A stretch of DNA of 64,000 bases from NCBI GenBank assembly GCA_033580375.1, contig GCA_033580375.1_4527.1, one strand, 5' to 3'. Made by a program: the position numbers and the translations under genes. The stretch is from a phage. Under the pieces are notes generated by a model, which was given only the letters and a program-made list of their open reading frames with translations, searched no databases and was not told the DNA's origin. This document shows, piece after piece, positions 2-56,729 of this stretch (position 1 is the stretch's first letter; each line of letters starts with the position of its first letter).

Positions 2-2311
2 TGGTCTGCTGATGATGTTCGTTTCAGTTCACAAGACGTAACATTTGCTAAAATCGGGGATCAATTAAATTTAGGTTTTGATGTAGAGATTTTCGGTACA
101 TACGCGTCATTACCAGGAAACGTATCACGTATTGCAGAAGCTATTACTTGTAATGATGACTATGTTTATATTGCGGCCAGAGATAAAGTTCGCTTCGTTA
201 AAACCAGTAACGCTCCTATTGATTCAGATCCATTATCTCCGACCTATTCCGAACGGTTGTTTGAACCTGAGACGTTTACAATAACAGGCAACCCTAAAGC
301 AGTTTGTTATAAAATGGATTCTGTTGGTGGAAGAATATTCGCTCTTATTATTGGTGAAGTTGAAAACGTTAATGACGACCCAAGAACAAAGCCTATTTTG
401 GATTCTGTTGATAAAGGTGTATACGTTTTAGACCATGACGCTGGAACATTTAAAAGGATATTTGGTAATACTGAAGAAGAACGCCGTCGTATAGAACCGG
501 CTTTCACCAATATGTCTACTGACGGTGTTGAGCTTTATATCTCTTCTAGTAATTTTAAATTTTTAGAATCTGATATTGTTGACGACCCGGAAACGCAATC
601 TAAGTATGGACTTTTAGGAGCGGTTAAGTATGAATATCCTAGAGAATGGCTCGCAGATAAACATTACCATATGATGATTTTCGCATCAAACGAAGAAAGT
701 AATTGGGAAACTTTTTCACCAACTCCTATGCAGTATTATGCAGAACCTTTCTTTAGTTATTCTAGAAAATCAGGCACACGTTCTTGGATTAATAACTCTG
801 ATAGAGCGGTAGTGATTTATTCTGATTTGCTTTACACAAAGGTAGTGGAAAGCTACCCTAGCACTTCACCTGATCGTAAAGTTCACGAATACTGGAATGA
901 TGGCGATTGTAAGATTGTTATGCCGAATATAGAATTCACTGGATTTAAAAAATACGCATCTGGTATGTTGTTTTATAAATCATCAGGTGAAATAATTTCA
1001 TATTACGATTTTAGTTATCGTGTTAGAGATAACGTTTCTATAATTTGGAAGCCCACTAACGTATTTTTGACCGCCTCATTACAAAACCAAGAAAAAGAAA
1101 CTTCTTGGGTTCCTGTTGAAGAGACAGGTCTAGCTGACCCGGATTTACGCCCATTACTCACTACAATGATGCCAGAGTCTTATCTGTTGGATAATACAAA
1201 CTTTGAAGCATTTTGTGAAGCGTATATTCAATATCTTTCTGATGGATATGGGACTCATTATAATAACTTATTGAATTTGATTAAAAATAAATACCCACGA
1301 GAAGAACACGCATGGGAATATCTTTGGTCTGAAATTTATAAACGGAACATTTATTTGAATGCTGAGAAACGTGATTTAGTTTCTAGGTTCTTTGAGTCCA
1401 GAAGTTATGATTTTTATTCTACTAAAGGAACTGAAGCGTCGTATAAGTTTTTGTTTAAAGTTCTTTATAACGAAGACGTTGAAGTGGAAATTGAGTCATC
1501 TGCTGGAACAGAGTACGATATCATAATTCAATCTGATTCTATAAGTGAAGATTTGGTTGGACAAACTATATACACAGCTACAGGTAGATGTAATGTTACA
1601 TATTTGGAAAGAAGCTATTCTAAAGGTAAATTACAATGGACTGTGACTATTCATAACCTTTTAGGTAGGCTTTTAGTCGGTCAAGAAGTAAAAGCCGAAA
1701 GACTAGCAGATTTTGAAGGTGAAATAGTTCGCGGTATTAAAGGTAAAGAACTTGCCCAAAACACTATCGATTATTTTAATCGTGGTAGAGCTTATTACGT
1801 CATGAAAATAAAGTCAAATCTTCCATCCTCTCGTTGGAAATCTGACGTACTACGTTTTGTACATCCGGTAGGATTCGGATTTATTGCAATAACCTTATTA
1901 ACAATGTTTATTAATACAGGATTAACGCTTAAACATGTTGAAACTATTATTAATAAATATAAAAATTATAAGTGGGATTCCGGTCTGCCTACAGAATATG
2001 CAGACCGTGTCGCTCGTTTAGACCCTCAAGGTAATGTAGAATTCAATCCTGTTACAGGTGAAGTAATTTATGATGCTGGTCCTTATGCCGGTATCGAATA
2101 CCCTTTACCTGCAAATTATAATGAAGAAAATGATAACTCTATTTTCCAAGGACAATTACCGTCCGAACGACGCAAGCCGATGAGCCCATTATTTGATGCA
2201 TCAGGTACAACGTTCTCTAGATTTAGAGAGCTTGTTAATGAAAGATTGTTAGATAACGTGGGAAATCCTAGAGACCCGATTAATCCACCACAGGTTAAAT
2301 TAGATGAATGA
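2..2311 (+). CDS. 7: Baseplate wedge protein gp7, C-terminal ~770 aa; 5' end lies beyond the window
   Basis: Frame is open from window position 2 with no stop before 2311; the TTG at 257 in the ORF track is not a real start. Sits immediately upstream of 8-9-10-11-12 as in T4. Confidence 0.75.
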   Translation, partial: WSADDVRFSSQDVTFAKIGDQLNLGFDVEIFGTYASLPGNVSRIAEAITCNDDYVYIAARDKVRFVKTSNAPIDSDPLSPTYSERLFEPETFTITGNPKAVCYKMDSVGGRIFALIIGEVENVNDDPRTKPILDSVDKGVYVLDHDAGTFKRIFGNTEEERRRIEPAFTNMSTDGVELYISSSNFKFLESDIVDDPETQSKYGLLGAVKYEYPREWLADKHYHMMIFASNEESNWETFSPTPMQYYAEPFFSYSRKSGTRSWINNSDRAVVIYSDLLYTKVVESYPSTSPDRKVHEYWNDGDCKIVMPNIEFTGFKKYASGMLFYKSSGEIISYYDFSYRVRDNVSIIWKPTNVFLTASLQNQEKETSWVPVEETGLADPDLRPLLTTMMPESYLLDNTNFEAFCEAYIQYLSDGYGTHYNNLLNLIKNKYPREEHAWEYLWSEIYKRNIYLNAEKRDLVSRFFESRSYDFYSTKGTEASYKFLFKVLYNEDVEVEIESSAGTEYDIIIQSDSISEDLVGQTIYTATGRCNVTYLERSYSKGKLQWTVTIHNLLGRLLVGQEVKAERLADFEGEIVRGIKGKELAQNTIDYFNRGRAYYVMKIKSNLPSSRWKSDVLRFVHPVGFGFIAITLLTMFINTGLTLKHVETIINKYKNYKWDSGLPTEYADRVARLDPQGNVEFNPVTGEVIYDAGPYAGIEYPLPANYNEENDNSIFQGQLPSERRKPMSPLFDASGTTFSRFRELVNERLLDNVGNPRDPINPPQVKLDE

Positions 2312-9738: not shown

Positions 9739-10665
9739 ATGTCAGGTTATAATGCACAAAACCCTAAAGAATTAAAGGATGTAATATTACGTCGTTTAGG
9801 CGCTCCTATTGTAAATGTCGAATTAACTACAGACCAAATTTATGATTGTATTTCACGAGCGTTAGAACTTTATGGCGAATACCATTTTGACGGGTTAAAT
9901 AAAGGTTTCCATGTATTTTTTGTTGATGACGAAGAAAAATACCGTCACGGCGTATTTGATATGCGTGGTTCTAATGTATTTGCTGTAACAAGAATTATAA
10001 GAACAAACGTTGGCTCTATTACTTCAATGGATGGTAACGCAACTTATCCTTGGTTCACTGATTTCCTTTTAGGAATGGCAGGCGTTTCTGGTGGTATGGG
10101 TAGTAATTGTGGTAAATTCTACGGTCCGAACGCTTTTGGTGCCGACCTCGGGTATTATTCTCAATTAGTATCTTATATGGGTATGCTTCAAGATATGATT
10201 GCTCCTCTTCCAGATTTTTGGTTTAACTCTGCAAACGAGCAATTAAAAGTAATGGGTAACTTTAGACAGAAAGATGTTATTATCGTTGAATCGTATGTTC
10301 GCTCTTATATTGAGACACATAAGATGGTAGGAAATACAGTAGGTTATGGACAGGTCGGTCCTCGTGATTCATGGTCTATTTCTGAGCGGTATGACAACCC
10401 AGACCATAATTTAGTCGGACGTCGAGTTGGTGAAGATCCTGCAACTAAACAAGGCGCATATAACAACCGCTGGGTTAAAGATTATGCAACTGCATTAGCT
10501 AAAGAGCTTAATGGACAAATTCTTGCTAAACATCAAGGTATGATGTTACCAGGCGGTGTCACTGTTGATGGTGTTCGATTAATTGAAGAAGCCCGTTTAG
10601 AGAAAGAAGCTTTACGAGAAGAGTTATATTTACTGGACCCTCCTGCAGGTATTTTGGTAGGTTAA
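9739..10665 (+). CDS. 13: Neck protein gp13
   Basis: 308 aa versus T4 gp13 309 aa; synteny. Confidence 0.8.
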
Positions 10666-31601: not shown

Positions 31602-31998
31602 ACACTCTATTGCTTGACGCTAACTGAAGTTTAATTTGTTCGATATCATCAGGGTTATCTACGACCGAAAATCTAATCTCTACTATAACTGTATAGTCAT
31701 CATATACTGGCGTTACACTTACAGAAAGTTTGTCGATGCGAGGCTCATAGTTACGGACAGCTGCCTGGATATTACGCTCAATAGTATCGGCTGTAAGTGG
31801 TGTCATGTTCTCGAAAAGTTCGTCGACCAAATCGCATCCAAATTCAGGGTCGAAGGGGCGTGAGCCTTTTCTAGTTGTCACTATGCCAAGAAGACTATTT
31901 TTAATAGAACGAAGTCCTACAGAACGAGCAACGTCCTTGTTCCAATCTATACGCATTTCTGGGTCGATATCTGAATAAAGTTTATTGATATTAGACAT
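31600..31998 (-). CDS. 25: Baseplate wedge protein gp25
   Basis: 132 aa; sequence MSNINKLYSDIDPEMRIDWNKDV...QLASSNRV nearly identical to T4 gp25. Confidence 0.95.
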   Translation of the reverse strand: MSNINKLYSDIDPEMRIDWNKDVARSVGLRSIKNSLLGIVTTRKGSRPFDPEFGCDLVDELFENMTPLTADTIERNIQAAVRNYEPRIDKLSVSVTPVYDDYTVIVEIRFSVVDNPDDIEQIKLQLASSNRV

Positions 31999-32624
31999 TA
32001 TAATAACTCAAAGAATTCTTTGAGGCCTCGTATTGTGTGAACATGTGACGCCCCACATTTGGGACATTTAATAGGGGTTGCCAGATAAATTGATGGCGAT
32101 ACCAAAAGATTTTTAATATTGATCATGTCATCTTCTGTTATAAGGCCGTAAAGGTCGTTTATTTCTGCTTCAGTTAAATCTTCAACAGGGATAGACTCTC
32201 CATTGACAAAAACAGCCTCAATACATGAAGCAATCATTAATGCGATATTTTTATCGTCAAATAATTTAGGTTGACGGAACTTAATTTTAATACCACTGAA
32301 CGAATACCAGGGATCGGCCTGTTCATCTAATTGAGTGTGCAATAAATTCATATATACTTGAAATGAATGCCCACAGGAACAATTCCAGGTGTGTTCTTGA
32401 TTCACTTCACCTAATGAATGTGCCCACAGATTTACCAACAATAACTCGGCTTCTTGTTTAGACAAGTTTTTAGCATTAGAGCAATTAGTGATAATATTGT
32501 TCACTGCTGATTCAATAGTACCGGTAGCACGAGCACCTATGAGCCCTAAATATTCTTTTAAAGTAAAGGCTCTACAATTCACTTCTTTATCGCCTAAACG
32601 TACGGTAAACGTATATTTGTACAT
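31998..32624 (-). CDS. 26: Baseplate hub protein gp26
   Basis: 208 aa as in T4 gp26; ATGA overlap with gene 25. Confidence 0.85.
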   Translation of the reverse strand: MYKYTFTVRLGDKEVNCRAFTLKEYLGLIGARATGTIESAVNNIITNCSNAKNLSKQEAELLLVNLWAHSLGEVNQEHTWNCSCGHSFQVYMNLLHTQLDEQADPWYSFSGIKIKFRQPKLFDDKNIALMIASCIEAVFVNGESIPVEDLTEAEINDLYGLITEDDMINIKNLLVSPSIYLATPIKCPKCGASHVHTIRGLKEFFELL

Positions 32625-53298: not shown

Positions 53299-54432
<1,134 letters not shown>

Positions 54433-54449
54433 TCAGTTAGTTTTTTTAA

Positions 54450-54479
54450 ATTGTACCACAATCCTTGTGGTATGTAAAC
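54450..54479 (-). promoter_or_regulatory. Early-type promoter GTTTAC-N18-TACAAT for rnlA
   Basis: Consensus blocks followed by AGGA RBS. Confidence 0.55.
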
Positions 54480-54889
54480 TACTTTTTCTTATGTTGGATA
54501 TTCCAAGGCGGGTTGAACTTTTTGATAAAAAGCGGTTCTTCAAGGTCCATTGTTGCGATGGTCATTGAACCAAGTTCGTTGGTGACTGAAAGGTCAAAAC
54601 ATTGGCGGGCCCAGAATTCAACCTTTTTGCCTTGCATTAAGGCATCCAAAATCATAAGTGATTTTCTTGAATCTGAAGTCTGGTCTTTTCGATTTATGGC
54701 TGTTCGATAATAGTTAATGCGTTTCTTTAAATTCTTGGTTTTACCAATATACACAAGTTCGTCATCTATAGCAATAGCGTATATGACATTTTTCTTATTA
54801 GGGGCATCAACGGTTTTAATTGTTGCATCTTCTAATAGCTCCAATTCTATATATTTAATAAAGGAATATTCGGCGGCAATATCTTTCAT
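54479..54889 (-). CDS. denA: Endonuclease II (host DNA degradation)
   Basis: 136 aa; sequence MKDIAAEYSFIKYIELEL...YAIAIDDELVYIGKTKNLKKRINYYRTAINRKDQTSDS... matches T4 EndoII. Confidence 0.95.
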   Translation of the reverse strand: MKDIAAEYSFIKYIELELLEDATIKTVDAPNKKNVIYAIAIDDELVYIGKTKNLKKRINYYRTAINRKDQTSDSRKSLMILDALMQGKKVEFWARQCFDLSVTNELGSMTIATMDLEEPLFIKKFNPPWNIQHKKK

Positions 54890-54897
54890 AATAAAGT

Positions 54898-54911
54898 GGG
54901 ACCGAAGTCCC
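54898..54911 (-). promoter_or_regulatory. Stem-loop GGGAC-TTCG-GTCCC between the nrdB stop/SD-like AAGGA and the denA ATG
   Basis: mRNA reads UAAGGACG-GGGACUUCGGUCCC-ACUUUAUU-AUG; the hairpin sits between an SD-like sequence and the start codon. Confidence 0.5.
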
Positions 54912-54915
54912 GTCC

Positions 54916-56091
54916 TTAGAAATATTTTTTGTATGAATTGATTACATTTTGGTCTACATCATTATCAATTTGTGCAACAAGATAAGAACTGATTTCAACT
55001 TCCTGAGGAGCTGCTTGAACTAAATCAGAGTTCAGATATTCACGAATCCAAGGATACGGATGTTTGGTCGGAGCATCAGTAATTGGACACGGCAAACCAC
55101 ACTGTTTCATACGAGACACAGTCAAGTAATCAACAAAAGCACACATACTCTGTGTATTGATACCTGGACATGTACCGTCTTTAAAGAGGTGCGCAGCCCA
55201 TTCCTTCTCTTGACTATTTACTTCCATAAAAATGTCAACTGCTTCTTGTTCACATTCTTTAGCAATTTGAACCCACTCATCGCCGTCAGTACCAGATTGA
55301 AGTTGACGGATAATGTACTGAGTACCCTTAAGGTGGAGTTGTTCGTCACGAGCAATGAACTTCATAATCTTTGCATTGCCTTCCATAATTTCCATATTTT
55401 TATGGAAGTTGAAAGTACATGCAAATGATACGTAAAAACGAATAGCTTCTAAGGCGTTGATAACGTGCAAACAGAGATAAAGAGATTTCATTAGCTCACG
55501 CTTGGCGTTAAACATTATTTCTTCGTACATCTCAATATCATTCTGCTGGCATGAGCCTAGTGAATACTCATAATTTTCCTTAGCATTTTCCCAATGGCGA
55601 GTCTTGATTAGAACATCATCATAATATTTACCTATTGATTCAGCTCGTTTCATGATTGCTTCGTCTAATACAATTTCATCAAATACCTTAGATGGATCGG
55701 TATAAAGATTTCGCATAATATGAGTATATGAACGAGAGTGAATAGTTTCACTGAATGTCCATGTTGCAACCCATGTATCTAATGAAGGGTCAGAAATAAG
55801 TGCCATAAGTACCGCAGATGGGGCCCTGCCTTGTATAGAATCTAATAATGATTGATACTTAAGATTGTTTGTAAAGATGTCCTGTTGGAACTGAGGAAGC
55901 TTATTGAACTGCGCAGAGTCCAACATCAAGTTTACCTCTTCTGGGCGCCAAAAAAATGAGAGAGATTTTTCAGTAAGGTCTTCAAAAACTTTATGACGTT
56001 GGATATCGTAACGTGCAATGCCTAAACCAGAACCAAAAAACATCGGTTCATTTAAAACATCAACTTGTTGGGTGTTAAAAACTGTGCTCAT
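54916..56091 (-). CDS. nrdB: Ribonucleotide reductase small (beta) subunit, uninterrupted
   Basis: 391 aa; di-iron/tyrosyl radical R2 family; T4 synteny; no intron. Confidence 0.9.
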   Translation of the reverse strand: MSTVFNTQQVDVLNEPMFFGSGLGIARYDIQRHKVFEDLTEKSLSFFWRPEEVNLMLDSAQFNKLPQFQQDIFTNNLKYQSLLDSIQGRAPSAVLMALISDPSLDTWVATWTFSETIHSRSYTHIMRNLYTDPSKVFDEIVLDEAIMKRAESIGKYYDDVLIKTRHWENAKENYEYSLGSCQQNDIEMYEEIMFNAKRELMKSLYLCLHVINALEAIRFYVSFACTFNFHKNMEIMEGNAKIMKFIARDEQLHLKGTQYIIRQLQSGTDGDEWVQIAKECEQEAVDIFMEVNSQEKEWAAHLFKDGTCPGINTQSMCAFVDYLTVSRMKQCGLPCPITDAPTKHPYPWIREYLNSDLVQAAPQEVEISSYLVAQIDNDVDQNVINSYKKYF

Positions 56092-56729
56092 TTAAAATCC
56101 TTAAATTTACATTTATCATAATGCCATCTTAAAGCATTACCCTTATTAACTTTCTTGCCACAATGTGGACATGGCGGATATTCAGTACCAGATTTAGTCT
56201 TTTCAGATATTAACAATTTTGTTTTATCTGTATGTGGTACACCTCTTGTTGGAGATATTGTACCATACATAGGATTAAGCACACCAAGTTTAGACTTTGA
56301 TATATTTTCACAGTGTTCTTTAGATTTAGGCTTTCTCATCCGTTGGATATGTAAATCTGTAAATTGTCGTCCTTTCAAAGCTTCGCTGATTTTAGCTTTG
56401 GTTTCCTCAGACATTTCACGTCCAGTCATAGCCTCTGATAGAAGTTTCTTGCCTAATTCGTATAGCCTAGAAGAAACGTTATAATTTCTCCCTTTATTGG
56501 TCAAACACATCATACCAAAGGCTTGTTTAAGACCAGGATAAGAATTGAATTTGGTTAATAATCTATGAGCTAAAAAGTGTTCACGACCAGTTAAATCCAC
56601 AAGGTTTTCAACATCATTGGTTCCTCCTAAACATTTAGGAATTATATGATGAGTCTCTTTATATTCGGATAAAGGTTCCCGAGCCTTCGCCCGGGAAATT
56701 AGGTCATTATAGATTTTTTGATAATTCAT
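56088..56729 (-). mobile_element. Free-standing HNH homing endonuclease (at the T4 mobE position between nrdA and nrdB)
   Basis: 213 aa; HNH motif ETHHIIPKCLGGTNDVENLVDLTGREHFLAH; C-terminal CPHCG...C zinc ribbon. Confidence 0.8.

Follow-up and report, generated by a model that had tools for sequence, protein, structure and literature searches.

In bacteriophage T4, a hairpin situated between the Shine-Dalgarno (SD) sequence and the AUG of genes 38 and 25 cuts the spacing between the two elements (22 nt reduced to 5 in gene 38 and 27 nt reduced to 11 in gene 25), and mutations that destabilize these structures lower initiation (PMC3014915). Genes 38 and 25 are the only split-SD cases named in that 2010 review, in which denA is not mentioned, and the layout of gene 25 was reported only in close T-evens (PMC3014915). 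A literature search that reached the older T4 work only in part yielded no study dealing with the initiation region of denA, nor did it find T4 Term-seq, Ribo-seq, a denA toeprint, or transcript 3'-end maps of T4-like phages. Here, we describe the nrdB-denA junction of a T4-like phage, and we consider, with a probability of roughly 0.6, that the start of denA is a split ("accommodated") ribosome-binding site, a reading based on comparison of sequences. We found no earlier description of a split SD for denA; the mechanism as such is known from genes 38 and 25.

The window, i.e., the whole stretch of 64,000 nt that was analyzed, carries on its minus strand nrdB (56091..54916; Pfam Ribonuc_red_sm, PF00268) and denA (54479..54889), which codes for endonuclease II, a GIY-YIG protein of 136 aa starting at AUG 54889-54887. 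The product matched T4 endonuclease II (PDB 2wsh) with E=4e-66, with the GIY-YIG domain present. The junction region is 99% identical to those of phages CEV1, p000v (classified in the Tevenvirinae, Mosigvirus), ST0, and the LF82 series. Two other features of the same strand are located nearby. Between nrdA and nrdB there is a 213-aa HNH/NUMOD3 homing-endonuclease ORF (56088-56729, mobE-like), the stop codon of which overlaps the nrdB AUG (AUGA); this ORF is missing from the close relative p000v and present in LF82-1. At the other end of denA, a strong sigma-70-like promoter (54450-54478; TTTACA-17 nt-TACAAT with an extended TG) is predicted upstream of rnlA (54423..53299), its first hexamer beginning 1 nt 3' of the denA stop codon, which would fit with rnlA having an early promoter of its own.

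Along the minus strand, the junction reads, 5' to 3', UUC-UAA-GGA-C-GGGAC-UUCG-GUCCC-ACUUUAUU-AUG. The nrdB stop codon UAA (54916..54918) overlaps the SD-like UAAGGA (54913..54918, with the core AAGGA at 54917-54913), and after a single nucleotide comes the hairpin (54898..54911), composed of GGGAC (54911-54907), UUCG (54906-54903), and GUCCC (54902-54898), for which there is evidence from both folding and covariation (see below). The hairpin-to-AUG interval is an 8-nt A/U-rich spacer, ACUUUAUU (54890..54897), without any SD-like core. The preliminary description of this DNA had singled out UAAGGA as the only SD-like sequence upstream of denA, about 23 nt from the AUG and with a stable hairpin in between, and this anatomy proved accurate. 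No other SD-like element was found in the interval, and the distance from SD to AUG, counted from the A of GGA (54913), is exactly 23 nt on the linear RNA, above the roughly 15 nt taken as the lower bound for a split site, and 9 nt with the hairpin folded out. Within these 23 nt, the stem is the only place where a GG-containing SD core occurs. The gap between the nrdB stop and the denA AUG is 26 nt, with no stop/start overlap (AUGA or UAAUG) at this junction, and there is no in-frame ATG, GTG, or TTG upstream of 54889 in the window.

The assignment of the denA start differs among database records. In the T4 RefSeq entry NC_000866 and in MT984581, denA begins at a GUG located 3 nt after the nrdB stop (435 nt, 144 aa); the 1986 entry X04140 begins at the AUG (136 aa), and most other phage records do likewise. 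The T4 GUG (L031 2457-2461 and L053 1752-1756, equivalent to 54915-54913 of the window) lies inside the foot of the hairpin, at zero spacing from the SD. It is missing in the window and in most junction variants and elsewhere is often in another frame. Thus, the T4 RefSeq start of denA looks wrong, given that the GUG is not conserved across the junction variants. More generally, the upstream GUG or AUG codons of T4-, VR5-, and L040-type junctions are not conserved, and a GUG/AUG start at the hairpin foot was rejected, as it would be restricted to few junction types, often in another frame, and with zero SD spacing. Among denA junction relatives, the AUG and the N terminus MK(D/E)IA are conserved, and the comparative data favor the 136-aa product started at this AUG with a distant SD. 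The alternative start with a conventional ribosome-binding site that the preliminary description had allowed for was looked for, and none was conserved. X04140 had marked two potential ribosome-binding sites, AGGA at the stop codon and AAGG within the hairpin; the second, formed in T4 by the GCAA loop and the 3' arm, was discarded as an alternative SD, being missing in the UUCG-loop variants, including the window. Automated pipelines were seen either to label the hairpin as a terminator or to place the ribosome-binding site inside the stem.

The closest counterpart of this arrangement is the T4 gene 37/38 junction, GCA-UAA-GGAGAGGGGCUUCGGCCCUUCUAAAU-AUG-AAA, where SD and gene 37 stop codon overlap. 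This junction has a CUUCGG hairpin within a 26-nt gap and 22 nt from GGAG to AUG, reproducing the published 22-to-5 nt case, and when it was aligned with various denA junctions, 27 to 31 of 35 to 36 bases were identical. Gene 25 is present in the window, and its site was used as an internal positive control. Its split initiation region (31996..32029, minus strand) reads GAGG-C-CUCAAAGAAUUCUUUGAG-UUAUUAUA-AUG, with GAGG at 32029-32026, the single C, a hairpin at 32024-32007, UUAUUAUA, and the AUG at 31998-31996; the 18-nt hairpin, CUCAAAG-AAUU-CUUUGAG, folds with -6.4 kcal/mol, and the linear spacing is 27 nt. The denA junction has the same layout as these two sites.

To follow the junction beyond the window, we ran two scans of IMG/VR, one with the DenA protein and another with a DenA alignment, which gave about 40 loci. 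Together with T4, these amounted to 23 distinct nrdB-denA junction sequences spanning several genera of T4-like phages; besides T4, they appear to come from STML-198, VR5/JS98, CC31/PG7, Moon, CIP9, PEi20, Muldoon, Pm5461, and TG1. The order of nrdB stop with SD-like purines, GC-rich hairpin, A/U-rich tail, and AUG was kept in 23/23. The purines overlap or abut the nrdB stop in every variant, and the purine element (UAAGG, UAAAGG, UAAGGAG, GAGG, AGGUGA, and similar) is invariably located between -3 and +4 nt relative to the foot of the stem. All 23 variants retain the GG of the SD in non-coding sequence, and none has a GG in the hairpin-to-AUG tail, which is A/U-rich and 4 to 10 nt long. The distance from stop to AUG was 24 to 32 nt (mostly 26 to 28) and that from SD to AUG 21 to 28 nt on the linear sequence; with the hairpin looped out, the latter became 5 to 10 nt in 22 of the 23 junctions. 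A comparison of the variances of linear and effective spacing was uninformative as a test because hairpin length hardly varies. The T4 nrdB-denA junction, for which the preliminary description had proposed a direct comparison, keeps the same layout with a GCAA loop.

The stem is present in several versions (GGGAC/GUCCC, GGGCC/GGCCC, GGGGC/GCCCC, AGGGC/GCCCU, and GGGAGAC/GUCUCCC), with double changes at 5 of 7 pairs and 88.8% of the cells paired across the 23 junctions. Compensatory cells numbered 26 versus 9.6 expected, a score that none of 500 shuffles reached, and the slid controls were all lower. The loop was UUCG, GCAA (T4), GUAA, UUUG, UUAG, or CUUGA, and this variation argues for selection on a stable hairpin and not on a sequence-specific (protein-binding) site. 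When folded in isolation, the denA hairpin had a free energy of -9.0 kcal/mol, in agreement with the stability ascribed to it at the outset, and made up 98% of the ensemble. However, 5 of 200 shuffles folded as stably (z = -1.9 for the hairpin alone), and with 71 nt of context the z-score was only -0.83. A lone 5-bp hairpin is therefore unremarkable; it is conservation with covariation that lifts this one above chance. Rfam covariance models gave no match at E<=1 within positions 54300-55300. The gene-38-type split SD put forward in the preliminary description is thus supported by the likeness to the 37/38 junction, the geometry of gene 25, and the conservation over 23 junctions with compensatory stem changes.

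Two further observations concern individual lineages. One denA copy (L025 1501-1908 and L041; IMGVR_UViG_2974754850) has an in-frame stop, with only residues 1-124 matching; it may be a pseudogene or the result of a sequencing error, and the upstream SD and hairpin are intact there. The other concerns GGAG, which is the target motif of the RegB endoribonuclease. This motif is found in the SD of T4 (L031 2455-2462), CC31-type, and Pm5461-type junctions, versus GGAC in the window (compare 54913-54917), so that any inactivation of the denA initiation region by RegB would be lineage-specific.

In predicted folds, the denA SD frequently took part in weak pairing, either with the U-rich tail or with other sequence, and had a low unpaired probability, and the minimum-free-energy folds of many variants extended the stem by pairing AAGGA(G) with the tail. 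Folds of this kind are what would be expected if the structure were a negative element, its lower stem sequestering the SD and keeping a toxic nuclease low; alternatively, the hairpin could act as a 3' stabilizer of processed nrdB mRNA, and the over-representation of CUUCGG in the window (see below) would suit this class of explanation. We regard it as highly improbable. Most pairs of the lower stem are A-U or G-U, their contribution is only about 1 to 3 kcal/mol, and they show the lowest conservation; in 10/23 variants, pair 15-32 is unpaired. Furthermore, partition function calculations for the gene 25 control gave a similar predicted pairing of the SD, yet its structure is reported to enhance translation (PMC3014915); since the control is likewise partly paired, SD accessibility does not discriminate between the readings. 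A role as stabilizer would, for its part, leave the conserved SD and the fixed distance to the AUG unexplained. A 5-bp complement of the SD, UCCUU, in denA codons 8-10 of the window was attributed to chance, since it is conserved neither in T4 nor in VR5-type genes.

A different explanation, already raised in the preliminary description, is that the hairpin simply ends nrdB transcription. Here, an intrinsic terminator or attenuator would stop most nrdB transcripts, denA would be weakly translated from rare read-through, and UAAGGA would be incidental. The denA element does resemble a rho-independent terminator in that a U-rich stretch comes after its GC-rich tetraloop hairpin, and it passed a lenient terminator scan (5 T in 8), with a tail that in the window begins with AC. 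Better U-tracts, UUUUAUU or an A-tract/U-tract pair, are found in some variants, T4 and STML-198 among them; a terminator is annotated at the denA hairpin in several GenBank records; in the early regions of T4-like phages, TransTerm predicted many hairpins of 5 to 7 bp, one of which precedes denA in RB49; and low expression would suit a toxic nuclease. The denA element differs from a terminator in its short 5-bp stem, in an interrupted U-tract that starts 2 nt past the stem and is not kept in all lineages, and in that a gene starts 8 nt downstream. Since the hairpin ends only 8 nt before the AUG and the interval from nrdB to denA was found to hold no promoter-like site, there is no room or site for a denA promoter, so denA depends on read-through and a terminator cannot be the whole story. 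At the Muldoon-type junctions (L023 and L024), the tail is AUAAAGCU or GUAAAGCU, with no U-tract, whereas the hairpin, the SD, and the 8-nt spacing are kept. The SD GG retained throughout the non-coding sequence of the junctions also counts against termination as the sole function, and the 37/38 module, which lies between two co-transcribed genes, reportedly enhances translation (PMC3014915). We consider the terminator-only explanation unlikely. What stands of the earlier alternative is an additional role, because termination is compatible with a split SD and partial attenuation is possible; the denA site might possibly be a weak attenuator as well, or be coupled to nrdB termination.

Coupling to nrdB has also to be weighed as an explanation in its own right, by which ribosomes terminating on nrdB would be held by the adjacent SD and restart 26 nt farther on, the hairpin shortening the path or blocking back-sliding. 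The position of the SD on or next to the nrdB stop in all junctions is in line with this, as is that of the gene 38 SD on the gene 37 stop, and in more distant relatives denA is directly coupled to the upstream ORF, by UAAUG in PspYZU05 and by AUGA in Aeromonas phages AS4 and phiAS5. The same type of coupling is found in the Yersinia phage fHe-Yen9-01 (L022 1300-1700), where denA has neither the hairpin nor the SD and nrdB (326..1504) overlaps denA (1501..) by AUGA. In this phage, the similarity to its relatives phiR1-RT and TG1 begins at the denA AUG, from which we infer a recombination breakpoint at the start codon, nrdB having been replaced exactly up to the AUG of denA. On the other hand, simple reinitiation would have to span a rather long gap, 26 nt with a stable hairpin in it; gene 25 has the same geometry without an upstream stop overlapping its SD; and the denA of Krischvirus Cognac has a conventional SD after a hairpin and is uncoupled. 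Reinitiation as a full account is, in our opinion, quite unlikely. It overlaps with the split-SD reading, and what it suggests is an interplay with nrdB termination, without replacing the split-SD geometry. The natural variants with a stop/start overlap and without SD or hairpin indicate, moreover, that denA as a gene can do without the hairpin.

We also asked how rare the layout is within the window, using a census of 85 non-overlapping ORFs. A distant SD with an intervening hairpin and no SD at 4 to 13 nt was found only for gene 25 and denA, and six further hits of the pattern were internal codons of longer ORFs. The full pattern is expected by chance about 0.6 times per 85 starts versus the 2 observed, so the census alone is only suggestive. 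A 4-nt SD at 4 to 13 nt was missing in 33 of the 85 first-start ORFs, a crude count inflated by wrong start assignment, and lack of an SD is accordingly not exceptional in itself. Five other genes are preceded by a hairpin (starts at 9739, 11481, 30395, 45189 on the minus strand, and 51832 on the minus strand), and all of them have a normal SD past it. The sequence CTTCGG occurs 30 times in the window versus 17 expected from shuffles, none of which reached 30, and several of these copies are intercistronic hairpins before a conventional SD (genes at 9739, 30395, and 45189).

An IMG/VR pattern scan for TAAGGA, a CUUCGG hairpin, and AUGAAA in succession gave 63 matches. Those with real stems and flanking ORFs were essentially only denA junctions, one 37/38 junction (L096), and one unknown gene. 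The last of these corresponds to the module TAAGGACGGGGGCTTCGGCCCCTGTGTCATTATGAAA ahead of an unrelated 256-aa ORF (MKVVWLSSGDEIEF...) in three metagenomic viral contigs (L070, L071, and L100), and this module is possibly a further split-SD site, in addition to those at the denA and gene 38 junctions of T4-like phages.

Under the split-SD reading, denA would be transcribed by read-through from nrdB, and its sole SD, AAGGA, lying within or beside the nrdB stop, would be too distant from the AUG on the linear RNA. The 14-nt CUUCGG hairpin would fold quickly and loop out the intervening bases, leaving the SD about 9 single-stranded nucleotides (1 + 8) from the AUG, so that the AUG could be placed in the P site of a 30S subunit bound to the SD by base pairing. 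We infer from the comparison with genes 38 and 25 that ribosomes use the distant SD and that folding raises the translation of denA. Since the SD overlaps the nrdB stop, a ribosome terminating there would, for a short time, occupy the SD and open the hairpin, and some interplay of denA initiation with nrdB translation is likely.

This overlap invites a broader and tentative proposal, which we hold to be unlikely as it stands: that UAAGGAG, tetraloop hairpin, and AUG form a portable T-even cassette in which downstream initiation is gated by upstream termination, with perhaps some attenuation of transcription. With its SD hidden in the stop codon of the preceding gene, such a cassette, deployed at unrelated gene junctions, could function as a gate. 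The ribosome terminating upstream would melt the hairpin and cover the SD, and refolding after its release would present SD and AUG together, so that at the 37/38 and nrdB/denA junctions downstream initiation would be metered by upstream termination. Attenuation by the hairpin on the same RNA could in turn fix a low nuclease-to-reductase ratio. The SD-in-stop architecture shared by denA and gene 38 makes the relation between termination and split-SD initiation directly testable.

Compared with the conventional hairpin-then-SD junctions of T4-like phages, denA has a hairpin of the same CUUCGG or GNRA type after the upstream gene, but there the SD is placed at normal spacing between the hairpin and the AUG, whereas in denA it is on the far side of the hairpin. 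It is this position that denA has in common with gene 38. In both genes, the upstream UAA overlaps the SD (UAAGGAG in gene 38 and UAAGGA in denA), a CUUCGG tetraloop hairpin of 5 to 7 bp starts 0 to 2 nt past the SD, and a short A/U tail leads to AUG-AAA, with 26 nt from stop to AUG. The linear spacing is 22 nt in gene 38 and 23 nt in denA, and the effective spacing 5 and 9 nt, respectively. The two also differ in some respects. The denA loop of T4 itself is GCAA and not UUCG as in the gene 38 hairpin. Gene 38 is a late gene. In contrast, denA is a prereplicative nuclease gene (PMC2988021).

With gene 25, denA shares the succession of SD, 1 nt, hairpin, 8-nt A/U spacer, and AUG, and the differences are that the gene 25 hairpin is A/U-rich and that no stop codon overlaps the gene 25 SD. 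If our reading is correct, denA would be the third example of a rare type of ribosome-binding site, built by a folding-shortened SD-to-AUG distance, and one conserved more widely than that of gene 25. The layout of denA reaches Karamvirus-, Moonvirus-, Kanagawavirus-, Muldoon-, and Proteus-phage-type genomes, whereas that of gene 25 is reported only from close T-evens.
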